NCBI GenBank assembly: GCA_045863395.1
Contig: BTVJ01000012.1
Coordinates: 1-64,000, forward strand
Reading direction: 5' to 3'
Length of the DNA: 64,000 bases
Source: Myxococcales bacterium
GTDB taxonomy: Bacteria; Myxococcota_A; UBA9042; JABWCM01; BTVJ01
Shown: piece by piece, positions 6 to 34,038 of the stretch
How the letters are laid out: each line of letters starts with the position of its first letter
How positions within the stretch are numbered: the first letter of the stretch is position 1
Made by a program: the position numbers and the translations under genes
The notes under the pieces: generated by a model
What the model was told of the DNA's origin: nothing
Database searches by the model: none
The model's input: only the letters and a program-made list of their open reading frames with translations

Positions 6-929
6 TCAGAGCAGATACGGAGTCAGCTCGTCGTCGCCCCAGCGCTCCAGGTAGTCTCGCCGCGCCCCGAGGCAAGCCCCTCCCCGAAAGGCGCACCCCT
101 CGCAGCGGCCGGTGTACGTGGACGGGCTGATCACCGAGTCCCACAGCGCGAAGCGGGACCCCGGAGTCACCACGAGCACGCGGTCGTCTCGCAGGTCGTG
201 CACGTGGTCCTCATAGCCCCGCAACATGCACCGCGGGATGTGGCGGGAGACGACCCGCACGCCCAGCGCGCGGCCCCGATCCATGGCTCCCGTGATCCCC
301 GCCCGCATCTCGGAGACGCGCGGAAGTGACTCCGGGAAGGCAGCGTTCCGATCCGTGAGGGACACGAGCCACAGGGCAAAGTCCCCCACACCCCTCGCAG
401 CCCAGAAGTCGACCATCGCGGGCAGGTGCTCCCAGGTGTCGCGCTTGACAATCAGGTCCGCGACTGGTCTCTGTGCCGCCGCCACGAGATTCTCAACGCC
501 GCGGACAGCCAGCTCGAACATCCCTGGCCGCCGCATGATGGCCTCGTAGAGCGCCGCCGTGTGCCCCATGAGCGAGACATTGAAGCGGGTGACCCCCGCC
601 TCGACCGCCTCCCTGACATAGTCCGGGTAGGAGTACATCAAGGCGTTGGAGGAGACCTTGACGCTGGTGAACCCCCGGTCTCGGCACCACCGCACGAGGG
701 GCAGCAGGTCCTTGCGCATGGTCGGCTCGCCCCCCCCGAACGCAGCGGCCCGGGCGCCCGCCTCCCAGGCACCCCGCAGCTCACCGAGGATCTGCGCGGT
801 GGTCATGTTCGTCTGCCGCTGCGCGTCGTGGATGGAGCAGTAGTCGCACCGCACGTTGCACTCGTAGCCCATGATGACGTCCACCATGACGTCGCTCATG
901 TCCCGAGAGAGAGCCCTCGCCTCAGACAT
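6..929 (-). CDS. Radical SAM protein (HxsC-like, single domain)
   Basis: CNVRCDYC motif, GGGEPT, later RHIPRC and C-terminal CEGCAFRGGACLG. Start moved from the track's 1046 to ATG 929 (MSEARALS), which overlaps the upstream stop at 922-924. Confidence 0.9.
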   Translation of the reverse strand: MSEARALSRDMSDVMVDVIMGYECNVRCDYCSIHDAQRQTNMTTAQILGELRGAWEAGARAAAFGGGEPTMRKDLLPLVRWCRDRGFTSVKVSSNALMYSYPDYVREAVEAGVTRFNVSLMGHTAALYEAIMRRPGMFELAVRGVENLVAAAQRPVADLIVKRDTWEHLPAMVDFWAARGVGDFALWLVSLTDRNAAFPESLPRVSEMRAGITGAMDRGRALGVRVVSRHIPRCMLRGYEDHVHDLRDDRVLVVTPGSRFALWDSVISPSTYTGRCEGCAFRGGACLGARRDYLERWGDDELTPYLL

Positions 930-3204
930 TGGCGGCCTCCACGGGGATCGGCGGCGCATACTCCCGCCCGAAGTCGAAGAAGCCGCCGCACCCCAGGCTG
1001 TGGGCGCAGGTGGCACACTCGGGCACGCGCACCCGCCGCTCCCCAAGGTAGTTGCCGAGATTCACCTGCTCGTCCCACACGAAGACCATGGTCCGCCCAA
1101 GCTTCTGCAGGTCCGCGAGCACGTACCGCTCCAGACCAGGGAAGAGGCACGGCTGCGCGTTGACCACGAAGATGCGCGACCTCTCCCCGTACCGCTCGAT
1201 GATCCGCCTCACCTCGGCCGCCGCCTGCTGCGGGGGTGGGACGATGTCCGACTGCGCGTTGCCAAAGGGCGTCAGGAACTGGTAGTTCACCTTGCGCACC
1301 CCGAGCTCCCACAGGAGATCCGCATACTCCTGCAGGTGCGCCACGTTGTTCTTCGAGATGGTGATGTTCACGCCGAAGTCGACCCCGGCGGGCAGCACCC
1401 GCACAGCGGTCCGGATCCCCGCCACGGTCTCGTCGAAGGACCCGGGCGCGCGCGTGATCCGATCATGAATCTCCGCCGTGTGCCCATGCAGCGAGATGAG
1501 CAGGCTCGTGACTCCGCTGCTCAGGAGGCGCAGCGCCTGAGACTCGTCCCCGAGCTTGCGCCCGTTGGTCGTCACGTTGACCTGCGAGTACCCCAAGGAC
1601 CGCGCCAGGGCCACCGTGTCGTTGAGCTGCGGGTGCAGCGTGGGCTCGCCGCCGTCGATGTCCAGAGACCGGATCCCCGCCTCCCGGTGCTCCCTCAAGA
1701 TGCGCTCGATGCGCGGCCACGCCACGAACTTGCGGATGCGGTCTCCGGTGGCGCAGAACTCGCAGTTGTTCACGCAGCTATAGGTGATATTGAAGATCAC
1801 CTTGCGCTGGCGCGACGCCTGGATGGTCTCCTCCAAGGCACCGGTCGCCGCCTCCAGCCACCCAGGCGGGATCGCCGGCGGCACGAAGGCGGGCCGGTGC
1901 TGAAACAAGGAGCCGTCGGTGGAGTCGGCGCCGTCCTCGGTGGTGAGCCCCAGCTCCAGGCACTGATCGTGCAGCGGCGTCCCCTTCAGGGGGGTGGCGA
2001 ACTGTACGGCGGGCTGGGCGCCGTAGCTCTCGTGCAGGTGCCAGGCGTAGCGCAGAGTCTCGAGGACGTCCTCCCGCGTCTCCCACGGGAAGCCCACGAT
2101 GAAGTGCACGAGGAGCGGCACCCCCACCCGGGCGCACGTGGCGGCGACCCGCTCCACCTCCCGGGGGTCGAGCCGCTTCGCGATGGGCCCCTGGAGGGCG
2201 CCGGCGTTGCCGCTCTCAACGCTCACGGACAGCAAGGTCACGCGGCCGGCCATCTTCTCGATGGCGGAGTCTCTGAGGTAGTCCGCCCGCAGCCCGTTCG
2301 GGAAGTCGTAGCGCAGGTCGTATTGCTCGAACAGCCCGAGGAGCTCCTCGAAGTCGGGGCGAAGGTTGGCTATCTCGTCCATGACGAGCAGCTTCTTCGC
2401 GCCCAGCGCCCGCGCCATCAGGAAGACCCAGTGCCGGAGCGCGGCCAGTGGGACCGCCCGGTAGGGTTTGCGGCCCGTGAGCTGCCACCCCGGGTTGCTC
2501 GCGCAGAAGATGCAGCGGTGGACGCACCCGCCGCTGGTCATGAGCGGCAGGGTGGTCGCGTCGACGCCGAAGGGGTTGGACCAGCGGTCCCTGAAGCAGC
2601 TCCGCACGAAGGCCCGCAGGCGCCCGGTGTCGATGGCCTCGAGGAGGGGCATCGGCGGCGCATGGCCGCTGGGCCACGGCCTCGCCGGCTCGTCCAGGCA
2701 GCGGCGCGAGCCGGCGAGGTCGAGCAGGCGCTCCGGCTGGCTGAAGGTCTCGTCCCCCGCGTAGCGGATGATGGCGTCGAGCCCCGGCAGGGCCTCGAAC
2801 ACCCGCTCGGGCTCGTACCCCATGACGTGCATGCCCCCGAAGTGGCAGTCCGCGAGCACCAGGGGCGCGGACGGGAACCGCGCGCGCAGGGCGGCGACCA
2901 GCTCCACCGTGTGCGGCTCCGGGCGCCAGGCCCGCAGGAACGGCGTGTTGCCGATGACCACCACGTCCGCCGTCGGGGGCAGCGCGGCCAGCACCGCCTC
3001 GTTCGGCACGCCGAGCAGGAACCGGTCGCCGTCGTAGTGGCGCGCGGAGCCTGGCAGCGCGAAGGCGTCCACGACCCGCACACCCCACCCGGCCCGGGCG
3101 ACGAGGGCGGCGCTGGCGAGGAGGCCCCAGTCCGCGAAGTACGGGTAGTCGATGAAGTCGCTCCCGATGGAGAGCGGCGGGTTCACGAACAGGGCGATCC
3201 TCAC
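922..3204 (-). CDS. B12-binding radical SAM fused to a second, HxsC-like radical SAM domain
   Basis: N-terminal cobalamin-binding-type region (VNPP...GLL...VRVVDA...FGGMH), TSGGCVHRCIFC and FIVGFPWET (class B pattern). Second domain ITYSCVNNCEFC, DGGEPT, NAQPC, CATCAHSLGCGG. GTG start with GGAGGG RBS. Confidence 0.9.
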   Translation of the reverse strand: MRIALFVNPPLSIGSDFIDYPYFADWGLLASAALVARAGWGVRVVDAFALPGSARHYDGDRFLLGVPNEAVLAALPPTADVVVIGNTPFLRAWRPEPHTVELVAALRARFPSAPLVLADCHFGGMHVMGYEPERVFEALPGLDAIIRYAGDETFSQPERLLDLAGSRRCLDEPARPWPSGHAPPMPLLEAIDTGRLRAFVRSCFRDRWSNPFGVDATTLPLMTSGGCVHRCIFCASNPGWQLTGRKPYRAVPLAALRHWVFLMARALGAKKLLVMDEIANLRPDFEELLGLFEQYDLRYDFPNGLRADYLRDSAIEKMAGRVTLLSVSVESGNAGALQGPIAKRLDPREVERVAATCARVGVPLLVHFIVGFPWETREDVLETLRYAWHLHESYGAQPAVQFATPLKGTPLHDQCLELGLTTEDGADSTDGSLFQHRPAFVPPAIPPGWLEAATGALEETIQASRQRKVIFNITYSCVNNCEFCATGDRIRKFVAWPRIERILREHREAGIRSLDIDGGEPTLHPQLNDTVALARSLGYSQVNVTTNGRKLGDESQALRLLSSGVTSLLISLHGHTAEIHDRITRAPGSFDETVAGIRTAVRVLPAGVDFGVNITISKNNVAHLQEYADLLWELGVRKVNYQFLTPFGNAQSDIVPPPQQAAAEVRRIIERYGERSRIFVVNAQPCLFPGLERYVLADLQKLGRTMVFVWDEQVNLGNYLGERRVRVPECATCAHSLGCGGFFDFGREYAPPIPVEAANV

Positions 3205-3216
3205 GGTCCCTCCATC

Positions 3217-4047
3217 TCAGACGCTTGGGGCGCAGGCCAGCCACGCGACCGCGCCGGCGACGAGGCCAGCAAGGCGCTGCCACCGGCGGAGCACCGCAGC
3301 GCGCATGGCCAGGGCCGCGGGCCCGGCGGCGAGCGTCACGGCGGCGAGGGGAGCCGCGGCCAGCGCGACCGCCAGCGTCGGCGCCGCAGCGAGCAGGGCG
3401 ATGATCGCACCGGCCCCGAGCAGCGCGACCAGGGCAGACACCACACGTGGCCCGAAGCGCAGCCAGGTCGTCCGGATCCCGTCCGCGCGATCCGCGACGC
3501 CGTGGGCCGCCTCGTGCACGAGCTGGTTCTGCAGCAGCACGGCGACGAAGCCCGCCAGCAGGAGCGCTCCGTCGCGGGTGAGCTGGGCGCCGCCGAGCAA
3601 CGCGAGGGGGGCGAAGATCCACCCGTTGGCCAGGGTGCCGATCACGGGGCGGCGCTTCAGACGCGGCCCGGCGGAGTAGAGCAGGCCACCGGCAAGCGAC
3701 CCCAGCGCGGCGAGTGCGGGCCCCAGCCCGTTGAGCGCCGCGGCGGTGAGGGCCCCGGCAGCCGAGACCCCCAGCGTCCCCTTGAGCACCGCGGCGCTCG
3801 CTCCCCACGGGGTGCTCCTCCCCCCGCGCGCGCCCCCCTCGTCCTCCCACTCGTTGACGCCATAGGCGAAGGCCAGACAGCCAGCCGCTGCCACCAGGGC
3901 CGCAGAGAAGGTCGCCAGCGGCGGACCGTCTCCAACCGACAGGAGTGGCAGGGGCAGGAAGTGAACCCAGTCGCGCACCCGCACGAAGCGCACGAGCGCC
4001 AACGCCGTTACGGGCGCCTCCCGCGCGGGAGCCATGGGTTCCGTCAC
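3217..4047 (-). CDS. UbiA prenyltransferase-family membrane protein with degenerate Asp motifs
   Basis: Multi-TM; FVRVRDW, YGVNEWED, LLYSAGPRLKRRP and ADRADGIRT follow the UbiA layout. Start at GTG 4047 (GTGA overlap with upstream stop) or ATG 4035; the track's extension to 5403 is spurious. Confidence 0.75.
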   Translation of the reverse strand: MTEPMAPAREAPVTALALVRFVRVRDWVHFLPLPLLSVGDGPPLATFSAALVAAAGCLAFAYGVNEWEDEGGARGGRSTPWGASAAVLKGTLGVSAAGALTAAALNGLGPALAALGSLAGGLLYSAGPRLKRRPVIGTLANGWIFAPLALLGGAQLTRDGALLLAGFVAVLLQNQLVHEAAHGVADRADGIRTTWLRFGPRVVSALVALLGAGAIIALLAAAPTLAVALAAAPLAAVTLAAGPAALAMRAAVLRRWQRLAGLVAGAVAWLACAPSV

Positions 4048-5093
4048 CACGACAGCGCCTCCCAGACCGCCGAAAGGTCGGGCTTCAGCAGCAGGTGGTT
4101 CTCCACGTAGGGCGAGATGGTGCAGTCGCCGCAGGGCGGGGTCGTCAGCAGCGGGTGGGTCTTCGCGGGCCGGTCCAGGTCGGCGATGGGCACGCCGTCC
4201 TCGAACGGGACCATGCAGCAAGGCGTGGCGCGCCCGTCGGGGAGGATGGTCACCACATACCGCCCGGCGGGACACACCTCCCGGAGCCGCGGCCTCACGC
4301 CCGCGGTCATGAGCCGCAGATACGCAGTGGAGTTGCCCACCGGGCGGCCCGCCTGCTTCCACGCCAGGAGCCGCCGGAACACGTCGGTCGCCTGCTCCCA
4401 CGTCAGGCGCCCGTCGAACGCCCTGCCCTTCCAGCCGTCCCGGACCTCCACGGGCTGGAAGAAGGCTCTCATGCCGAGCTGCTCCGCGACCCGCAGGGGC
4501 TCTTCGATGGCGTGGAGGTTGCCGGTGTGCACCGGGCAGATCACCGCGAGCCGTGGGCCGCCTCGCCGCCTCAACGCCTCCAGGCCCGCGAGGGTCCGAG
4601 ACCAGGACCGCTTGCCCCGGATGCGCTCGTGGGTCGCCTCGTCCCCCTCCACCGTGGTCAGCACGAACTGGGCTGGTCCTACGTCGTCCAGGCGGTCGGC
4701 GAGGGTCAGCGCGTTGGTGACGACGCTCGTCACGAAGCCCAGGTCCACCGCCCGCCGGACCACTGCGCCGAGGTCCTCTCGCAGGAGCGGCTCCCCACCG
4801 GAGATGCTCAAACGGAACGTACCGCCCCGACGGAGCCCGGCGAGCAGGCGCAGGGTCGCCTCCGTGTCCAGCTCCCGGTCCGCGTGCCGCGGGAAGTCGC
4901 AGTAGCGGCACCGCAGGTTGCATCGCAGCGTGATGAGAAAGGTGACGGCGGACCACACGTTGCGCCCGGTGACCCGTGCGGCGGCGTGGCGCAGCAGCCC
5001 GTGCCCCAGTGTGAGCGGCCGCTGCAGCGCGCCTCGCAGATCGCCGTCCCCCAGCCCCACTGTCTCCGCCAGCCCCATCGGTGTGCCTGCCAT
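4044..5093 (-). CDS. Radical SAM protein with twitch/SPASM-type C-terminus
   Basis: ITLRCNLRCRYC, ISGGEPLL, C-terminal CPAGRYVVTILPDGRATPCC...CGDC. Confidence 0.9.
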   Translation of the reverse strand: MAGTPMGLAETVGLGDGDLRGALQRPLTLGHGLLRHAAARVTGRNVWSAVTFLITLRCNLRCRYCDFPRHADRELDTEATLRLLAGLRRGGTFRLSISGGEPLLREDLGAVVRRAVDLGFVTSVVTNALTLADRLDDVGPAQFVLTTVEGDEATHERIRGKRSWSRTLAGLEALRRRGGPRLAVICPVHTGNLHAIEEPLRVAEQLGMRAFFQPVEVRDGWKGRAFDGRLTWEQATDVFRRLLAWKQAGRPVGNSTAYLRLMTAGVRPRLREVCPAGRYVVTILPDGRATPCCMVPFEDGVPIADLDRPAKTHPLLTTPPCGDCTISPYVENHLLLKPDLSAVWEALSW

Positions 5094-5194: not shown

Positions 5195-6457
5195 TCACGG
5201 AGCTGGCGCCGCTGGGGCCACCGGCTCCCAGGAACACTCGGTCCCGGCGAGCACCACGGGCTTCGACCGGATCCCCTCGAGGGGCCACGTGAGAGACCGC
5301 ACGCCACTGCCGGGTGGGAGCTCCCCCATGTCCTTCTCCATGGCGATGTCCTGCCCGCCGTGGCGCACGCTGAGCACCGCCTTGCAGCGCCCCAGGTCTC
5401 CATACAGGTTCAGCGCCTTCATGTGCAGCTCGTAGCGCGGACCCTCCGGGCCCTCCACCTCGACGACGTCGGAGGACATCATCACCTGGCGACAGGACGC
5501 TGGCAGGCGGCCACCACCGGCGCACTTCGTCGGGTCTCCGGTGGCGATGCCGACGCAGTGCTGGCGGATGGCCTCCGACGGGACGCGCGCGCACACCGCT
5601 GCGTCCTGCTTCGCCATGCCGTGCAGGATCCAGAAGCTGGCGCACACCTCGGCGTCTGCGCTGCCCTCCTCGCAGGAGGGCTCGCCGCCCGCGGCAAGGA
5701 GCCGGCAGGTGCGGCCCACATTGGAGGCGTCCGCATCGTCACAGTCGTACTTGCCGGTAGCCCCGCCGACGCACAGCGCCCGGAGCGTGCCTGCCGGCAC
5801 GCCCGCGCAGGCGCCCCCATCCTTTGCGAGCACCGCCCGCCGGAGCGTGGCGAGGGTGAGACACTCCTCGGAGCTCCCGACCCCCTTGGCGGACGCACAC
5901 CGCTTGGGGTCACCCGTCGACGCCCCCACGCACCCGAGGTCCAGCGCCCCCGCCTTGCACTCCTCCGCCTGGCGTTTGAGGGCGTCAATCAAGATCGCCT
6001 CGACCTCTCCCTCCTTCTCTTCGACCTTGGCACGCGCCTGCTCCGCCTCCCGGCGGGCCAACGCGAGCTGCTGCTGCGCCAGGGAGAGCCGGTCGAACTG
6101 GATGCCGCTCTCACAGTCGGAGGTGCCCCCTTCGGGAGTTGCGGCGGGTGGCAGGGCTTTGCGCTGCGCCTCCAGCTCCCGCGCCCTGGCGGCCCGCTCC
6201 GCTGCCACGAGGTTGGCCGGCTCCGGCTCGGCCTCGGGGGCCGCAGGCGCCGCCGCGGCACCCGCCGGGGATGCTCCCACCGCGGCTCCCTCCGCCGGCG
6301 TGCCGTCCGTCGAGGCTCCCGCCGCGGGGGCTCCCTCCAGGGACGGCCCCTTCGCCACGGGTGCGACCGGAGGCGGCGCCGGAGCCTCCGCCTTCTTGCA
6401 CGCAGCGAGGGACGCCACCAGCCCGAGGGCTGCCAGGCAATGCACGGGGTGTCTCAT
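5195..6457 (-). CDS. Cys-rich lipoprotein
   Basis: Lipobox LAAC after a hydrophobic leader, Ala/Pro linker, coiled coil, repeated D-x3-C-x2-V-x5-R-x2-C units. ATG 6457 overlaps the upstream TGA (ATGA). Confidence 0.8.
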   Translation of the reverse strand: MRHPVHCLAALGLVASLAACKKAEAPAPPPVAPVAKGPSLEGAPAAGASTDGTPAEGAAVGASPAGAAAAPAAPEAEPEPANLVAAERAARARELEAQRKALPPAATPEGGTSDCESGIQFDRLSLAQQQLALARREAEQARAKVEEKEGEVEAILIDALKRQAEECKAGALDLGCVGASTGDPKRCASAKGVGSSEECLTLATLRRAVLAKDGGACAGVPAGTLRALCVGGATGKYDCDDADASNVGRTCRLLAAGGEPSCEEGSADAEVCASFWILHGMAKQDAAVCARVPSEAIRQHCVGIATGDPTKCAGGGRLPASCRQVMMSSDVVEVEGPEGPRYELHMKALNLYGDLGRCKAVLSVRHGGQDIAMEKDMGELPPGSGVRSLTWPLEGIRSKPVVLAGTECSWEPVAPAAPAP

Positions 6458-8328
6458 GAGGAGCCTCCTGGGGGCGCAACTGCACGGATCTCGATGGTCG
6501 CAGAGTCGTGCCCGCCCGTCGGGGCGGCCACCGAGGGCGGGTGGGTCAGGCGCCGGATCCCCCGCCCGCCGAAGCGCGCAACATACCCTCGCTGGATCCC
6601 TCTGCAAAGCCCGCGGTGCGAGCACCCGTCACACTCCTCGACCCAGCGGAACGCGGCGCCGTCCGGGTGGTCCGGCGAGAAGCCGTGCTGGACGAAGCGC
6701 GGGTCCCCCCCGAGCACGCAGGGAGGCACCCCGCACGTGCCGTCCTGCCCGCCGAAGGGGACGCCGAGGGCGACGCACTGCTCCAGGGCGGCGCGGAGGG
6801 CGGGGCCGACCGCGTCGAATGGGGCCACCCCGTCGTCGTAGCGGGTCGCCGCCTCCGTGATGGCCGCCGCCGCCGACCACACGATGCGCACCCTCTCTCC
6901 CCACCGCTCGTGCACGAACGCGGGGAAGCCCGGGGTCGTCTCCAGGTTGAGGCCCGTGATCACGTGGTTGACCAGCAGCTCCAGCTCCGTCTCGCGCACC
7001 ATGCGGTCGAGGGCGCTCACCGTGCGTGCCCAGTACCCGTCCGCCTGGGTGATCGCGTCATTGACCCTCGGCGCCTGGCTGTGGAGGCTCACGAGCGCCC
7101 GGGTGAGCCCCGCGTCCACCAGCCGCGGCAACAGGTCCCCCGCCGCCAGGTGCACGGCGTTGGTCTGGAGCTCCACCCGCACCATCCCCAGCATGCGCGC
7201 CTCCCGCACCACGTCGGGCAGCCACGGCACCAGGGTCGGCTCCCCACCCGTCAGGTTCAATGACAGAGCACCCTGGGCCCGCAGCGCCGCGACCTGCGAG
7301 AGCACCTGCTCCCGGGTGGGCGGCGTCCAGTCGAAGTCCACCCAGCAGAAGCGGCAGCGCTGGTTGCAGGCCCAGTTGACCCGGAGGTTCGGCTCGTCCC
7401 CGTCCAGCGGAGACTCCGGCGCCTGGACGACCGTGAGCTGCGTCCGCTGGCCCCGGTCCACGCCCCCGAGCTGCCCCCGGATGGCCGCCGTGGCCTGCTC
7501 CCCGGGCGGCTCCGTCGGGAGGCCGCCACCAGCGTACCGTGCGGGGAAGCCCGGGCACCGCGAGACCAGGGCACACTTCGCGCAGGCCGGGGCACGCACG
7601 CGGCCGCCGTCCGTGGACCCGGGCGACGGCCCGAGGCTGGCGAAGAGCGCCGTATGGACGGCGACGAAGCGGTCGGAGAAGGCGCACGGGGGCGGGCACC
7701 ACGCGGGCTCGAAGCGGTGATCCATGCGGTGCTTGCGACACCGGGCCGCGGCCCGCGCCAGGGGTGCCTCGAAGCGCGCGTAGGCGGCGCCCTCGACGGG
7801 TACGAAGAGCCGCACGGCGTCGGCCCCCGCCTCCGCCGCGCGGTCCACGAGGGCGCCCAGGCCATCCACCGTGTCGGCGGTCACGGGCAGACAGATGCCG
7901 ATGCGAGCCCCGAGGCGCGCCAGGTTGGAGAGGCCCTCCCACGTCCTGCGGAACCCGCCCGGGTCGCGCGAGAGCCGGTCGCTCTCCTCCTCCGCCGCCG
8001 ACAGCAGCGTGACCCACGCCCGCGTGAGCCCGGCCTCGACCAGCGCGCGTGCGCCCGGCTCCCAAGACGCCACGGTCGCGTTCGTCTCGACCTCCACCCC
8101 CTCGAAGCCCAAGCGGACGGCGGTCTGGATCAGGGCGGGGAGGCGACGGTCCAGCAGCGGTTCGCCTCCGGTGAAGCGCACGACGATGGAGCCGTCCTCG
8201 CGGCCTTGGCGAAGCTGCTGCTCGACCTGCTCGGTGGGGATGGCGCTCGGGCGTGTATCACGCAGGGTGCAGAAGGTGCACGCCTGGTTGCAGAGCCGGT
8301 GGAGGCGGATTGTCAGGACCAGAGACAC
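6454..8328 (-). CDS. Tandem double radical SAM protein (paralog A)
   Basis: Two CxxxCxxC motifs ([18 protein letters not shown]), each followed by TGGEP, a PPC motif and CxxCxxxxxCxG. Confidence 0.92.
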
Positions 8329-8400
8329 CGAGGGCTCCTCGCCGCCATCACCCGGGGAGCGGTGGAACGGCCAGCGGGGCGGCAGACGGCGTTGACGACG

Positions 8401-8709
8401 CTACCAGGAGCCGTGGGACCCGTGGCTGCCGTGGGACCCGTGGGAGCCGTGGGACCCGTGGGAGCCGTGGGACCCGTGGGAGCCGTGGGACCCGTGGCTG
8501 CCGTGCGACCCGTGGGAGCCGTGGCTCGCGTGGGAGCAGTGCTGCGCCAGGAGGGGATCGGCGTCCGGGTTTGCCCCGTTGAGGAGCTGGCTGCCGTTGA
8601 GGTCATCCGCCTGCTTGCGGACGATCTTCTCCTCCTCGCGGGAGAGGAACGCGTCGACTCGGCGCTCGCGCACCGGGAGCTTGCTGCTCGTCTTCCGAGA
8701 CTTCGTCAT
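8401..8709 (-). CDS. His-Xaa-Ser repeat RiPP precursor (HxsA-like)
   Basis: 102 aa: 56-aa leader ending DPLLAQ, then HCS-HAS-(HGS)13-W. GAGGA RBS, ATGA overlap with the upstream stop, flanked by radical SAM genes. Confidence 0.9.
8407..8541 (-). repeat. 15 x 9-bp coding tandem repeat (HxS triads)
   Basis: Plus-strand units ggagccgtg / ggacccgtg / gctgccgtg and variants, counted directly. Confidence 0.95.
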
Positions 8710-10616
8710 TCGGATTCCTCCGCCCTCACGCTGGAACCTGTCGCCTGAACTGTGCGCTTGCTGGACGCCGCCAACTGAACGGGGAGTCTAGCAGCGCCGT
8801 CCGGACGCGTCAATGCGGGCGGATCGATCAGCGGTCGAATGCCACGGTCACCGAAGGTGGCGACGTAGGACCGCTGGAGGCCGCGGCAGATCCCTCGGTG
8901 GCTGCACCCGCCACAGGCCTCCGGGAACACGAAGGAGCCGCTGTCCTCGTGGCCCGGCTCGAACCCGCGGGTGACGAAGCGGGGGTCGCCACCGAGGACG
9001 CAGGGAGGCACCCCGCAGGTGCTGTCCTGCCCGCCGAAGGGGACACCCAGCGCGACGCACCGCTCCAGGGCCTCGCGGAGCACCGGGCCCGCCTCGTCGA
9101 AGGGCACGATGGAGTCGTCGTAGCGCTGGGACGCCTCGGTGATCGGCGCCGCGACGGACCAGGTGATCTTGACGCGCCCTCCCCAGCGGCCGTGCACGAA
9201 GTCCACGAAGGACACCGTCGTCGCCAGGTTGCGGCGCGTGATGACGTGGTTGACCTCCAGGAGGAGCGTCGTCCCGACGAGCCTGTCCACCCCCGCGACG
9301 GTCCGCACGGCGTCGCCAGGGCTCTGCGTGATGGCGTCGGCGACCTCTGGAACATGGGAGTGCAGGCTGACCAGCACGTCCGTGAGCCCTGCGTCCACGA
9401 GGCGCTGTACGAGCGCGTCGGTCAGGTGTGTGCCGTTGGTCTGGAGCTCGATGCGCTCGAAGCCTAGTGCGGCCGCGAGGCCCACGGCGTCCGGGAGCCA
9501 CGGGACCAGCGTGGGCTCGCCTCCGGTCAGGCTGACGGCCCGGGCCCCCCTCGCCGCGAGCTCCCCGAGCTGTGCCAGCACCCGCTCCCGGGTCGGCGGG
9601 GTCCAGTCGAAGTCCACCCAGCAGAAGCGGCACCGCTGGTTGCAGGCCCAGATCAGACGCACGTTGGGCTTGTCACCGCCCGGATCGTCCATCTGGACGT
9701 GGCGCACCTGGTTGCGCGCCCCCCGGTCCACTCCGCCGAGCTGCCCGCGGATGGCGGCCACGGCCTCCTCGCCGGGGGGCGCCCCCGGGAGGTCGCCTGG
9801 ACGGGCCGCCACGTACCGAGAGGGGAAGCCGGCGCAGCGGTCGGCGATGCCACAGGCCGCGCAGGCGGCCACACGGACGCGCGGATCGTCGGTCCCGCCG
9901 GGGTCTGCGCGCAGGCTCGCGAAGAGCGGCGAGTGCACCCGCACGAAGCGCTCGGAGAACGCACAGGGCGGCGGGCAGTACGCGGACTCGAAGCGGTGAT
10001 CCAGGCGGTGCTTGCGGCACCGGGCGGCGGCCTTGCCCAGCCCTGCCTCCAAGGCGGAGAGCGCCGCCTCCCCCCGGTCCGTCACCGCGTAGAAGCGCAC
10101 CGCGTCCAGCGTCGGCAGCTCCGCCGCGCGGTCGATGAGCGCCGCCAGCGACGCGACGGTCCCCGGGAGCACCGGCGTACAGAGCCCGATGGTGACACCC
10201 GCGGCGGCGAGCGCCCGGGCGCCGGCCCAGGTGCGCGCCGCGCCCCCTTCATCGCGCGTCACCTGGTCGTTGAGCGCGTCGTCCGCCGCGTGCAGAGTGA
10301 CCCAGGCCCTGTCGAGCCCCGCCTCGACGAGCGCCCCGAGGACCGCCGGATACGTGAGCAGCACCGCGTTGGTCTCGATCTCGACGTGCTGGTAGCCCAG
10401 GTCTCGGGCGCGCCGCACGAGCCCCGGCAGGCGCCGGTCGAGGGTCGGCTCGCCCCCGGTGAACCGCGCGATGGTCGCACCCCCCGCTCGCGCGGAGGCC
10501 AGCTCCGACAGCACCTGGGGCGTGGGGAGCGCTTGGGGCACCGAGTCGCGCAGCGTGCAGAACGTGCAACCCTGGTTGCAGAGGCGATGGAGGCGGACGG
10601 TGCAGACGAGACCCAC
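8706..10616 (-). CDS. Tandem double radical SAM protein (paralog B)
   Basis: LCNQGCTFC and ACNQRCRFC motifs; colinear with 6454..8328, sharing [22 protein letters not shown] and [16 protein letters not shown]. Confidence 0.92.
   Translation of the reverse strand: MGLVCTVRLHRLCNQGCTFCTLRDSVPQALPTPQVLSELASARAGGATIARFTGGEPTLDRRLPGLVRRARDLGYQHVEIETNAVLLTYPAVLGALVEAGLDRAWVTLHAADDALNDQVTRDEGGAARTWAGARALAAAGVTIGLCTPVLPGTVASLAALIDRAAELPTLDAVRFYAVTDRGEAALSALEAGLGKAAARCRKHRLDHRFESAYCPPPCAFSERFVRVHSPLFASLRADPGGTDDPRVRVAACAACGIADRCAGFPSRYVAARPGDLPGAPPGEEAVAAIRGQLGGVDRGARNQVRHVQMDDPGGDKPNVRLIWACNQRCRFCWVDFDWTPPTRERVLAQLGELAARGARAVSLTGGEPTLVPWLPDAVGLAAALGFERIELQTNGTHLTDALVQRLVDAGLTDVLVSLHSHVPEVADAITQSPGDAVRTVAGVDRLVGTTLLLEVNHVITRRNLATTVSFVDFVHGRWGGRVKITWSVAAPITEASQRYDDSIVPFDEAGPVLREALERCVALGVPFGGQDSTCGVPPCVLGGDPRFVTRGFEPGHEDSGSFVFPEACGGCSHRGICRGLQRSYVATFGDRGIRPLIDPPALTRPDGAARLPVQLAASSKRTVQATGSSVRAEESE
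8785..8813 (-). promoter_or_regulatory. Putative sigma70 promoter for the precursor, internal to the upstream gene
   Basis: Minus-strand TTGACG (8813-8808), 17 bp, TAGACT (8790-8785), ending 75 bp before the precursor ATG. Confidence 0.65.
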
Positions 10617-10628
10617 GCTGACTCCCGC

Positions 10629-13223
10629 TCAGGGCTTGACGATTCGGTATCTGATCGCGTGCTTGCCGCCGTCGTGGGCCTCCCAGGCGACGGCCACGAC
10701 GCCGTCGGTCCGCCGGACCAGCGCCGGGTGCTGGTGCGAGCCGGGCAGCCCGAGCGAGGCTTGGGACGGATCCGTGAGGACGGCGCCGTCCGTAGCCACC
10801 CGCCGGGTGTAGACGGCCCGGTCTGGCCCGGCCCCCGGCCGCGCGGCCCACGCGACCACGAAGCTGCCGTCTCCCTGAGGAGCGACGGCGGCGCCGACGG
10901 GCTCGCTCCCGCCCCCCTTGGAGACGATCTGCGTGGCGCAGGCGTCCCCCACCTGGGACTCCAGGCAGGCGAAGCGGACGCCGTTCGCCAAGGAGCTCAA
11001 GTCCCCCACCCAGACTGCGCGCGCCGCCCCCGTGGCCGGGCTCGGCGCCACGGACGGATCTCCGAGGCCGGACAGCGCCGTGCTGTCCAGGGTGACCGGG
11101 GGCACCGTCAAGGACCCGTCCGGGGCCAGGCCGACCGCCGCCAGGGCCTGGACGACGCCCGTCTCCTGGCAGCAGGGCGGCTCGAGGCAGTCGCCGACGC
11201 ACACGGCTGGCTGCGCAGTGAGGCGCCGGCCCACGACCCAGGCGCCACCGTTGGGCGTGACGGCCAGCGCAGGGTGGAGCGCTTGCTCCTTGCCCCCCGG
11301 GTCGAAGGCGAGGGCGACCTCGGTGACCGGGGAGCCGTCCGGCCCCAGGCGTCGCTGGAGCAGGCAGCGCTCGCCGGTGCACTTGGCCCCGGTGGACTCC
11401 CACACGACCAGGTAGCCCCCCCCAGGGAGGGCACCGACCGCGGGACGCCGGTTCTCGCCACCCGGGGCGCTGACCGCCGTGGGCCCGGCGCTCGCTCCGC
11501 CGAGGACGACGGCCCGGACCGCTGAGCCCTGATCCATGGAGGTCCAGGCGACCACGTACCGGCCGTCTGGGGATCCGGCGACAGCGGCCTCGTCCTGGTT
11601 CGTTACGCCGTCCAGGCTGGTGACGGCCTGCTCGGCGCCGAGCGGGTTGGCGGCCGCGTCGACCGTGCGCGTGACGACGACGCTCGTGGCGGCGACGGTG
11701 CGCGTCCATGCGATCACCGCCCCCCCGCCCGGCAGGGCCCCGGCGGCCGGACGTGAGACCTCGAGGAGCGGGTCGGCGTTGACCTGGACGGGCCCATCGG
11801 GGACGCAGCCGACGCTCCCGAGGCAGAAGCTCCCGGCCGGGCAGGCGAAGGGGGCGCTCCACTCCAGGAAGCCAGCGCTGCCGAGCTCGCAGACCCGGAT
11901 GGCCGTGCCGTCGATGCACTCCGCCTGGCCGGCCACGCAGGCGTCCTTGCCGCAGACCCCCGCGCCCTTGCACACCTGGCCGAGCTCGCACGTCCCGGCG
12001 GGCGCCCACTTCATGAAGCCGCTCGGCTCGAGGACACAGACCAGCGTCTGGTTGCCCTCGACCGTGCTGCACACCTTGGTCCCCTCGACGAGGCACTGGT
12101 TGGAGCCGCAGGATCCCGCACCCTTGCACACCTGGCCCGGGGGGCACGGCGACGGGTTGCTCCACGCCGGTTCGCCGGCGAGGTCGAGGCAGGTGACGGT
12201 GGAGGACGCGCCGCTGCACTGCTTTGCCCCCGGCGTACACACGTCCCCGCAGCCGGCGTCCGGCTCGCAGAGGCCCTCGCAGACCAGGGGGTCGCCCCAA
12301 CGCAGGAAGCCGCCATCGCCCTGCTCGCACACCGAGACGTGGCCATCGTCGATGCAGGTGACCTGCCCCGCGAAGCTGCACTCGTCCTCGCCGCAGGCGC
12401 CCCCCTTGCAGACCGCGGCACCACCGCACGGCGACGGCGCGCTCCACGAGAGGAAGCCCGCCGCGTCGGCCTCGCACGTGATGCTCTGGGAGACTCCGTA
12501 GCAGGCGGACATGCCAGCGTGGGGGCACGCATCCTTGCCGCACTGGCCGTTGCCCTTGCAGACATTGCCTGCGGGACAGGCTTGCTGAGGGCCCCAGGTC
12601 AGGAAACCATCCTCGGCGGCAGCGCAGATCGTGTAGGCAAGGGAGTCCAGGCTGCAGGCCAGGGAGCCCGAGGCGGGGCACTCGTCGACGCCGCAGACGC
12701 CGCTCCGACAGAGCTGCCCCGGCTCACAGGCGGTCTCCACGAGCCACGTGAGGCACCCGTCCTGGCCCTCTCCGCACACCAGGACCACGGGGATGGCGTC
12801 GGGCGTGCACACCCGCAGCCCGGGGGTCACGCAGGGCTCCGCGGGGCACGGGTCGACCACGTCGATGGAGGCGTCCGGGACGTCCGGCGTGTCCGGTCCG
12901 GTCTCCGCAGCGTCGTGCGCATCCCCGAGCACATCGGGGTCCGGCACGTCCGGGGTGGGACCCACGTCCGCGCCGTCGTCCACGTCGAGGAGGGCGTCGC
13001 CGCCGTCCGGCTGTGGCGCCACGTCCTGGCCGTCGGCGCCCCCGTCGGCAACGACGTCGGGCGCAGCGTCAGCACCGGCGTCGGCGGTGCCATCCGCGCC
13101 CTGGGCGTCAGCCTCGGACTGCGTGCCGTCCGCGCCGGCGTCGGCGTTCCGGGTGAAGGTGGTGCACCCTGCGGCGGCGCCGAAGAGGACTCCGGCGAGG
13201 ATGCACTGGATGACTTGCCTCAT
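10629..13223 (-). CDS. Large Cys-rich repeat lipoprotein
   Basis: Lipobox AAGC, acidic linker, about 7 repeats of W-x5-C-x2-G-x2-C-K-G-x-G-x-C-G-x-D-x-C, C-terminal beta-rich domain with repeated (V/I)-x-W strands. Start moved to ATG 13223 (MRQVIQC). Confidence 0.8.
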   Translation of the reverse strand: MRQVIQCILAGVLFGAAAGCTTFTRNADAGADGTQSEADAQGADGTADAGADAAPDVVADGGADGQDVAPQPDGGDALLDVDDGADVGPTPDVPDPDVLGDAHDAAETGPDTPDVPDASIDVVDPCPAEPCVTPGLRVCTPDAIPVVLVCGEGQDGCLTWLVETACEPGQLCRSGVCGVDECPASGSLACSLDSLAYTICAAAEDGFLTWGPQQACPAGNVCKGNGQCGKDACPHAGMSACYGVSQSITCEADAAGFLSWSAPSPCGGAAVCKGGACGEDECSFAGQVTCIDDGHVSVCEQGDGGFLRWGDPLVCEGLCEPDAGCGDVCTPGAKQCSGASSTVTCLDLAGEPAWSNPSPCPPGQVCKGAGSCGSNQCLVEGTKVCSTVEGNQTLVCVLEPSGFMKWAPAGTCELGQVCKGAGVCGKDACVAGQAECIDGTAIRVCELGSAGFLEWSAPFACPAGSFCLGSVGCVPDGPVQVNADPLLEVSRPAAGALPGGGAVIAWTRTVAATSVVVTRTVDAAANPLGAEQAVTSLDGVTNQDEAAVAGSPDGRYVVAWTSMDQGSAVRAVVLGGASAGPTAVSAPGGENRRPAVGALPGGGYLVVWESTGAKCTGERCLLQRRLGPDGSPVTEVALAFDPGGKEQALHPALAVTPNGGAWVVGRRLTAQPAVCVGDCLEPPCCQETGVVQALAAVGLAPDGSLTVPPVTLDSTALSGLGDPSVAPSPATGAARAVWVGDLSSLANGVRFACLESQVGDACATQIVSKGGGSEPVGAAVAPQGDGSFVVAWAARPGAGPDRAVYTRRVATDGAVLTDPSQASLGLPGSHQHPALVRRTDGVVAVAWEAHDGGKHAIRYRIVKP

Positions 13224-32994: not shown

Positions 32995-34038
32995 CTAGAG
33001 CCCCGTGCAGTCCTGGTGCTGCGACGAGCAGTCGTGGTTCTTCGCGAAGTCCTTGCAGGCGAAGTCCGGCGTGGTCCCGCAGGACTGCTCCAGGCACGCC
33101 CAGTAGCGGGCCGCCGCGAGCTGATCGTGCAGCTTGGCCTGCCCGAGGCATGCATAGATGCAGGCGTCATTTCCCTCGCAGGGGAGGACGCAGTCATCGA
33201 AGACCGCGATGCAGGTCTTGGTGCCGGCGGGGGCGCAGGTCTCCGCCTGAGACTTGCACGAGGCGGCGTCGCCGATCTTGTCCAAGCGACATGACTGCGT
33301 GACCGGCGAGGGGCACTTGCCGCCGAGGCAGCTCTGAAGGGCCTCGAACTGGCCCTGCGCCGCGCCATCGCCCAGGTAGCCACAGCCGTCACGGCAGTCG
33401 GCGGTCCCGCACATGAGGTCGCAGTACCAGATGTGCGCACAGGTGCCATCGCCCGCCGTGCATGCATCGAAGGAGTCCGCGCACTTGTCTGCGAGGCAGG
33501 GCGCGAGATCGTCGCCCGTCGCCGTGGAGCAGTTGGCGGTGTAGCAATCGAGCAGCGCGCTGAACTCGGCGCCCTCCGCCTCGTTCTTCGCACCGCCGAT
33601 GCACCCGGCGATGCAGGCGCCATCCGCGCTGTCGCAGCCGAGGGCGCAGAGCATCACCTGGCCGCAGACCATGCCCTCCTCCACCGGCGGCGTGGCCGTG
33701 TCCGCCGTGCCGCCGGTGTCCGTCGTGCCGCCGGTGTCCGTCGTGCCGCCGCCGGTGTCCGTCGTGCCGCCGCCCGTGTCCGTCGTGCCGCCCGTGTCCG
33801 TCGTGCCGCCCCCGGTGTCCGTCGTGCCGCCGCCCGTGTCCGCCGCGCCGCCGCCGGTGTCCGCCGTGCCGCCGCCGGTGTCCGCCGTGCCGCCCGTATC
33901 CGCCGTGCCGCCCGTGTCCGCAACCGAGGCGTCGCCGCCTCCCGACGTGTCGTCGCCGCTGTCGCACGCCGCGCCGCCGAGGGCGACCATCGACCACACC
34001 GCCGCGGCGCCGGCAATCCGAATGAATCCGCTCTTCAT
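32995..34038 (-). CDS. Cys-rich lipoprotein with DTGG linker
   Basis: GAAC lipobox, 11 DTGG(G) repeats, repeated CxxxC helical units; GAGGAGG RBS favours ATG 34038. Confidence 0.85.
   Translation of the reverse strand: MKSGFIRIAGAAAVWSMVALGGAACDSGDDTSGGGDASVADTGGTADTGGTADTGGGTADTGGGAADTGGGTTDTGGGTTDTGGTTDTGGGTTDTGGGTTDTGGTTDTGGTADTATPPVEEGMVCGQVMLCALGCDSADGACIAGCIGGAKNEAEGAEFSALLDCYTANCSTATGDDLAPCLADKCADSFDACTAGDGTCAHIWYCDLMCGTADCRDGCGYLGDGAAQGQFEALQSCLGGKCPSPVTQSCRLDKIGDAASCKSQAETCAPAGTKTCIAVFDDCVLPCEGNDACIYACLGQAKLHDQLAAARYWACLEQSCGTTPDFACKDFAKNHDCSSQHQDCTGL
33697..33921 (-). repeat. 18/21-bp coding tandem repeat (T-[AT]-DTGG[G])
   Basis: Units such as gtgtccgtcgtgccgccg read directly. 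Confidence 0.9.

Follow-up and report, generated by a model that had tools for sequence, protein, structure and literature searches.

Results

The precursor gene and its family

The window, that is, the whole stretch of 64,000 nucleotides analysed here, carries on its minus strand an open reading frame at 8401–8709 that encodes 102 aa: a 56-aa leader, then HCS-HAS-(HGS)13-W and a stop codon. Translation agrees to the residue with the leader and triad array described by the first-pass annotation, from which the strand was absent. The features of this gene, hxsA4, are as follows.

8401–8709, minus: hxsA4 precursor gene, 102 aa (reading frame translation and match to model NF038313)
8404–8406, minus: terminal Trp codon, conserved
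8407–8541, minus: core array of 15 H-x-S triads (HCS, HAS and 13 HGS)
8542–8709, minus: leader, 56 aa, ending DPLLAQ
8716–8721, minus: Shine-Dalgarno sequence GGAGGA, 6 nt before the hxsA4 ATG
8785–8813, minus: predicted sigma-70-like promoter with an extended –10, within the 3′ tail of the upstream rS1 reading frame

We are highly confident that hxsA4 is a real gene and a real precursor of a type 4 His-Xaa-Ser system. Its GC3 is 0.95, and the sigma-70-like site (8813–8785) was found once against 0.0 expected from shuffles; such sites lie upstream of the precursor in 5 of 16 regions, this one included (0.85 expected), and in all three regions of its own order. No terminator-like site was found after the gene. 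RNA-library contigs cover the reading frame in the four runs examined (4 studies; 20 runs listed), which speaks to presence only. The bin holding the precursor had the highest summed RNA contig depth in 3 of these 4 runs, a measure that cannot rank genes, and the predicted start near 8778 lies a little beyond the ends of two RNA contigs, at 8733 and 8765, contigs being unable to show starts. For a related strain with about 8% differences, no indel is listed within the array in RNA-library contigs. hxsA4 is the sole run of at least four H-x-S triads in the six frames of the 8.77-Mb genome, where one other run of three lies at a contig end, and neither the six-frame triad scan nor a profile search found a second HxS precursor in this genome. 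The core holds 15 His among 46 residues and no Lys or Arg, and no two adjacent 9-nt units of the array are identical.

The product scores 119.4 bits against the HxsA4 model NF038313 (cut-off 55; model positions 1–93 of 93) and falls below the cut-offs of the HxsA, HxsA2 and HxsA3 models. It has the traits of the family, namely a conserved leader (LP..FL..EE), a C-terminal HxS array and a terminal aromatic residue, and is a typical member of this already catalogued family, ordinary within it. A database search gave 232 relatives, of which 120 were listed, a few of them unrelated low-complexity matches. Among these 120 listed homologs, 26 have at least 15 HxS triads, 96 have a W or Y within four residues of the end and just 4 open with HCS. 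NF038313 matches exceeded the cut-off in 32 of 41 genomes (this one and its relatives) and in 0 of 14 controls, and in one further relative the precursor gene is split by an assembly gap. In a phylum sample of 251 genomes, 79 carry a match over the cut-off, with 39 of 47 genomes of the same class and 41 of 203 other genomes positive. Named HxsB homologs and Atlas clusters also point to Myxococcota; the Atlas search returned Myxococcota clusters only, labelled hypothetical or collagen. A search of the open literature, which excludes subscription journals and supplements, found no paper on HxsA4 or HxsC4; the family is chemically unstudied, and radical-SAM modification of its HGS repeats is expected. 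The present member is of a Myxococcota type, with a pure HGS array opened by HCS and a leader free of a hydrophobic stretch; it differs in being flanked by duplicated double-domain radical SAM genes and in having its canonical partners on other contigs, outside the precursor's operon.

The leader is basic in its N-terminal part (+5) and acidic in its C-terminal part (–3), with conserved P12, L22 and E26 and a predicted helix at residues 24–45; AlphaFold leaves the core unstructured (pLDDT ~55). The highest 13-residue hydropathy in the leader is 0.09 against a median of 1.95 in the 120 homologs listed, 82 of which have a hydrophobic, signal-like stretch. In Flp/Tad prepilin-like substrates, cleavage takes place at a Gly that precedes a hydrophobic helix. 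Prepilin-type cleavage was rejected for this member, which lacks the hydrophobic stretch and, like its two closest relatives, the Gly of the family's EEG motif.

Genes around the precursor

The precursor lies in a run of minus-strand genes, five of them for radical SAM proteins (rS1–rS5).

6–899, minus: rS5, single-domain HxsC4-like radical SAM (HxsC4, 90.6 bits)
922–3204, minus: rS4, HpnJ-like radical SAM region fused to an HxsC4-like radical SAM domain (HxsC4, 130.7 bits)
3217–4050, minus: UbiA-family prenyltransferase (PF01040)
4044–5078, minus: rS3, SPASM-type radical SAM, forming a module of its own with the UbiA gene
5195–6457, minus: Cys-rich probable lipoprotein of no family (start inferred from sequence), with a paralog on contig C11
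6454–8328, minus: rS2, paralog of rS1 (61% identical) with the same double-domain layout (HxsC4, 125 bits)
8706–10616, minus: rS1, double-domain HxsC4-like radical SAM (best model HxsC4, 121.7 bits, cut-off 500)
10629–13223, minus: large Cys-rich probable lipoprotein, upstream

The stop codon of rS1 overlaps the hxsA4 ATG. rS1 contains two CxxxCxxC motifs, and each of its domains has a C-terminal Cx2Cx5C motif. Both rS1 and rS2 open directly with the radical SAM motif, and no RRE or other leader-binding domain was seen at their N-termini. HxsC4 (NF038332) is the best-scoring model for rS1, rS2, rS4 and rS5 alike; with scores below its cut-off of 500, they are HxsC4-like paralogs and not HxsC4. 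Double-domain rS1/rS2 orthologs occur in 14 of 41 genomes, as single copies in the two closest, and were not beside the precursor in the five loci inspected; the duplication around the precursor looks local. An RNA contig from a related strain passes over 566 nt of rS1 (9676–10243), a length that is not a multiple of three, which suggests that the duplicate is dispensable there. Homologs of rS4, in which no Pfam B12-binding domain was detected, lie near the precursor in 2 other loci. The contig ends 5 nt past rS5, so the cluster may continue. UbiA is found in 10 of 41 genomes, beside an rS3 homolog in 9 of 9 other loci and often next to membrane proteins. UbiA and the SPASM enzyme form a separate pair, and UbiA is unlikely to prenylate the Trp or otherwise tailor the precursor. 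Elsewhere in the window, 33692–33916 is another low-complexity repeat, rich in His, Gly and Arg in minus-strand frames.

Repeat number in relatives

For comparison of the arrays, 81 precursor loci were taken from the best matches in relatives and the phylum sample, not from all matches. They gave 75 intact arrays, 8 loci being without one (gaps, contig ends, irregular tails). The His count of the intact arrays has a median of 16 and a range of 7–59, with at least 15 in 66 of them, so the 15 triads that had been singled out as exceptional are usual for HxsA4. The accompanying statement that HxsA-type proteins carry only a few repeats is right for canonical HxsA, to which Li et al. ascribe five (PMC13128918), and wrong for the family to which this precursor belongs. 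HCS is the first triad in 73 of the 75 intact arrays, and the array ends with W in 60 and with HGQW in 15. Such strong conservation makes the first-triad Cys and the terminal Trp probably functional, as their designation as unique handles had implied. The middle position is Gly in 1215 of 1243 cases within the phylum (7 partial or irregular rows included) and in 674 of 1324 across the 120 listed homologs.

Homologous loci might have conserved another frame of the repeat, a possibility raised by the first-pass annotation, but relatives retain the H-x-S frame: their Ser codons alternate between TCN and AGY, a switch that alters the opposite-strand residues and leaves H-x-S intact. An opposite-strand collagen-like reading frame (7654–8748, plus) was rejected because its residues are lost when the Ser codons switch.

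The repeat count tends to be fixed within lineages, with exceptions, as if the product needed a set length. Family f7 has exactly 16 triads in 16 of 16 intact arrays, from 7 genera and with 16 different DNA sequences; the share of positions at which their Ser codons differ is 0.53, where saturation would give 0.62. In family f8, 6 of 8 intact arrays have 16 triads, the others having 7 and 32, and in the order studied here each of three genomes has a 15-triad gene, with Ser codons differing at 0.78, one of these genomes having in addition a 59-His paralog. Exceptions include f11 (17, 18 and 23), f5 (20 and 25) and a count of 50 in another family. Equal counts occur in 154 of 208 same-family pairs against 334 of 2567 between-family pairs, and without f7 in 34 of 88 against 142 of 1623, pairs of kin not being independent in either comparison. 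At the DNA level, shuffled arrays contain more identical adjacent 9-nt units (mean 232, sd 11, against 156 of 1109 observed) and fewer identical units two apart (216 against 349 observed). Either slippage-prone neighbours are selected against, or turnover in 18-nt steps returns the array to the same count. The fixed count could also be inertia of a codon-diversified repeat, and assembly may have failed preferentially for long arrays. Three loci (L018:4878–5594, L091 and L092) hold very long paralogous arrays of 50–59 His that end in HGQW; these are probably not assembly artefacts because their codon use is non-repetitive.

Dispersed partner genes

The models for the Hxs partners (HxsC4 NF038332, HxsD-like NF038315, HxsD TIGR03976 and HxsB TIGR03978) have matches over their cut-offs in the same genome, on separate contigs: HxsC4 on C9 (534.5 bits, cut-off 500), HxsD (58.7, cut-off 50) and HxsD-like (67, cut-off 41) on C15, and HxsB as two genes, on C121 and C89 (529 and 464 bits, cut-off 370). 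Together with the NF038313 match, these partner families bear out the earlier proposal of an HxS-repeat precursor tied to radical SAM enzymes. The genome has 13 genes with HxsC4-like radical-SAM domains, on several contigs, against one precursor. HxsA4-positive genomes have 4–17 HxsC4-like matches, numbers that do not equal gene copies, and four genomes with 0, 0, 0 and 1 such matches also lack HxsD-like and an HxsA4 over the cut-off. A fifth genome without precursor and HxsD-like, 77% complete, has 4 HxsC4-like matches, and in two genomes the enzymes and HxsD-like are present and the precursor was not found. An arrangement of one enzyme per triad is not supported, as the 16-triad f7 genomes have 7–14 HxsC4-like matches, and the many HxsC4-like enzymes could act on other substrates.

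The neighbours of the precursor vary among relatives: HxsD, HxsD-like or HxsB in some, sets of HxsC4-like genes or a NodU-like carbamoyltransferase in others, and elsewhere housekeeping genes alone. Inspection of 20 neighbourhoods by eye showed neither a dedicated peptidase nor a transporter next to the precursor. PADLOC gave generic viperin radical SAM matches only. The structural model of HxsB (pLDDT 90.9) begins with three strands and three helices and has CteB (5WGG) as its best match (TM 0.69). When HxsB (C121, 83-row alignment) and precursor residues 6–65 (81-row alignment) were modelled as a complex, the score was 0.02 against a mark of 0.32, which is informative neither way.

Several partner loci have further features. 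C15 holds a second Hxs locus (L036:6954–12377), in which three HxsC4-like radical SAM genes face those for HxsD, HxsD-like and a protein of 189 aa whose start is twin-arginine-like; proteins of this kind are also found by hxsD in L024 and L033. On C89 (L042:7760–10713), HxsB is followed by a degenerate copy (234 bits; CxxxCxxC missing in the gene call), possibly an inactive partner subunit. Two radical SAM genes of equal length and scores, C62:39076–40368 and C145:1298–2590, are either a recent duplicate or an assembly double.

Discussion

In the reading that we propose, a ‘type 4’ His-Xaa-Ser maturation system with dispersed genes has hxsA4 as its only substrate gene. This gene would be transcribed from its own predicted promoter, and its leader would be recognised by a maturase, for which the unlinked HxsB is the likeliest candidate, given that rS1 and rS2 have no leader-binding domain and that HxsB has an RRE-like N-terminus and a CteB-like fold in its model. 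HxsB and the HxsC4-like enzymes, including rS1, rS2, rS4 and rS5, would then act with HxsD and HxsD-like adaptors on the array; that most triads are modified is a view towards which we lean slightly. Radical chemistry would alter the His and Ser of the triads by closing rings, perhaps with incorporation of a carbon like that in the canonical HXS system, and the first-triad Cys and last Trp may be handled separately. After removal of the leader, the product would be one molecule of lineage-specific length, which we consider fairly probable, shaped as a stiff rod with one imidazole per three residues. Its role might be that of a routine metal-coordinating structural or spacing element, neither a diffusible antibiotic nor a mobile defence cassette; the class-wide presence of the gene and its stand-alone copies among housekeeping genes fit a routine function, and the putative coordination of metal is a tentative and rather doubtful part of the proposal. 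Taken as a whole, the reading of hxsA4 as a RiPP-type precursor matured into a defined-length, imidazole-lined, possibly metal-binding rod seems to us evenly poised.

The nearest system of known function is the canonical HXS anti-phage system HxsA/B/C/D, described by Li et al. (Nat Commun 2026, PMC13128918). As given there, HxsA has 214 aa, a signal peptide, five basic repeats and a peptidoglycan-binding domain; the genes keep a fixed HxsD-HxsB-HxsC-HxsA order, are 99.7% from Pseudomonadota and are carried by 27% of Klebsiella genomes, as a unit of four genes (PMC13128918). HxsC binds HxsD, all three proteins are required for processing and non-canonical export, the His and both Ser of SHRSS are essential, and every repeat is needed (PMC13128918). 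HxS repeats, HxsB, HxsD and HxsC-type radical SAM enzymes are common to HXS and the HxsA4 system, and hxsA4 could accordingly encode an anti-phage effector that is modified at one or a few triads, exported by the Hxs machinery and able to block DNA entry with its multivalent array. The need for every repeat in HXS would also explain a constrained count (PMC13128918), and the single HxS change mapped there, +8 Da (+C/–4H) in one motif and not a simple cyclophane, means that most triads of that system may be unmodified (PMC13128918). However, the hxsA4 product scores 23.1 bits against HxsA (TIGR03979; cut-off 121.65) and, unlike HxsA, has no signal-like stretch (hydropathy 0.09), no peptidoglycan-binding Pfam domain and no basic core residues. 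The HxsD-HxsB-HxsC-HxsA order is not found either: the genes lie in other contexts on separate contigs and are near class-wide, in contrast with the four-gene HXS unit. No PADLOC model covers the precursor, a weak argument as the PADLOC library predates HXS. On these grounds of protein make-up and distribution we rank a routine metal role above an anti-phage role, both being improbable and the latter unlikely.

The array could also be a multi-core RiPP, each H-G-S being cyclised (His C2 to Ser C-beta, as in a triceptide) and the array cut into numerous identical small units, or a 15-fold cyclophane secreted as a bioactive product. In the His triceptides made by HtkB, HaaB and YhhB, the third residue of the motif (Lys, Ala or Arg) is bonded through its C-beta to His C2, with a change of –2 Da (Phan and Morinaka, 2024; PMC11499958). 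These triceptides have in common with HxsA4 a His-x-x motif, processed in triceptides by a SPASM-type radical SAM enzyme, and HxsB, a relative of CteB and ChlB, is likewise of the SPASM type; the triceptide aromatic-x-x motif is present in the hxsA4 core as 15 His-x-Ser motifs. In the poly-cyclopropylglycine peptide of TvgA/TvgB, a radical SAM enzyme acts repeatedly on a core made of repeats (PMC9062424). Yet triceptides have one to three motifs and one maturase, with no His-Ser link reported in the accessible text (PMC11499958), and TvgA/TvgB, unlike HxsA4, has a TVGG unit, Val chemistry and a compact five-gene cluster with transporter and peptidase (PMC9062424). Within HxsA4, no spacer or cleavage residues separate the triads, no dedicated peptidase or transporter adjoins the precursor in the neighbourhoods inspected, and the copy number, which should be free, is fixed by lineage; in addition, the measured HxS change is +8 Da (PMC13128918). 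We consider a multi-core product improbable, and the His-to-Ser cyclophanes first suggested for this locus remain an analogy to His triceptides.

The Gly periodicity of the core raises the further idea of a collagen-like or polyproline-II protein, a (Gly-Ser-His)n core that trimerises through the leader helix and is stiffened by the enzymes in place of proline. The product does match Pfam Collagen (PF01391, 30.4 bits, cut-off 27.2), the nearest Atlas clusters are labelled Collagen, and Gly predominance within the phylum and fixed length are as expected. But the Pfam match is due to Gly periodicity alone, the family-wide invariants are His and Ser, with Gly in just about half of the middle positions of the listed homologs, there is no Pro, and the core is unstructured in AlphaFold, so that this explanation seems quite improbable. 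A poly-His metal sponge or store, left unmodified or modified only lightly and with loosely linked radical-SAM genes, would suit 15 His in 46 residues, an own predicted promoter and a gene often found alone, but it is very improbable, as Ser and exact three-residue spacing are invariant when His-rich stores need neither, the leader is conserved, presence of the precursor tracks HxsD-like and the expansion of HxsC4-like enzymes, and no metal-response genes were noticed beside it.

The pure, soluble, 15-fold HGS core offers a clean substrate for working out HxS chemistry, including that of the sole system with known function. Returning to the proposed modified rod, if the fixed count reflects selection, the product would be a modified peptide of defined length, and these bacteria would be making their largest standing commitment of radical-SAM enzymes to a routine job. 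The lineage-fixed count and the layout of one substrate and many enzymes, both testable, set this member apart from the routine. A bolder version, which we think unlikely, is that an entire class of Myxococcota, for the most part uncultured, devotes 10–20 radical-SAM enzymes to one ribosomal peptide of 15–18 ring-closed HGS units, a rigid, Cys/Trp-anchored poly-imidazole rod of genetically fixed length that some core structure of the cell would use as a metal wire or molecular ruler. If that were true, a RiPP would here be a length-defined structural polymer and not an antibiotic, signal or cofactor.

The true HxsC4 on C9 (L037:8958–15576) stands with a double-domain radical SAM protein, a third radical SAM protein and a methyltransferase-domain protein, and another radical SAM-methyltransferase fusion lies at C3:213154–214869. 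A NodU-like carbamoyltransferase adjoins or lies near the precursor in L016, L018 and L025, which makes Ser O-carbamoylation a candidate tailoring step.
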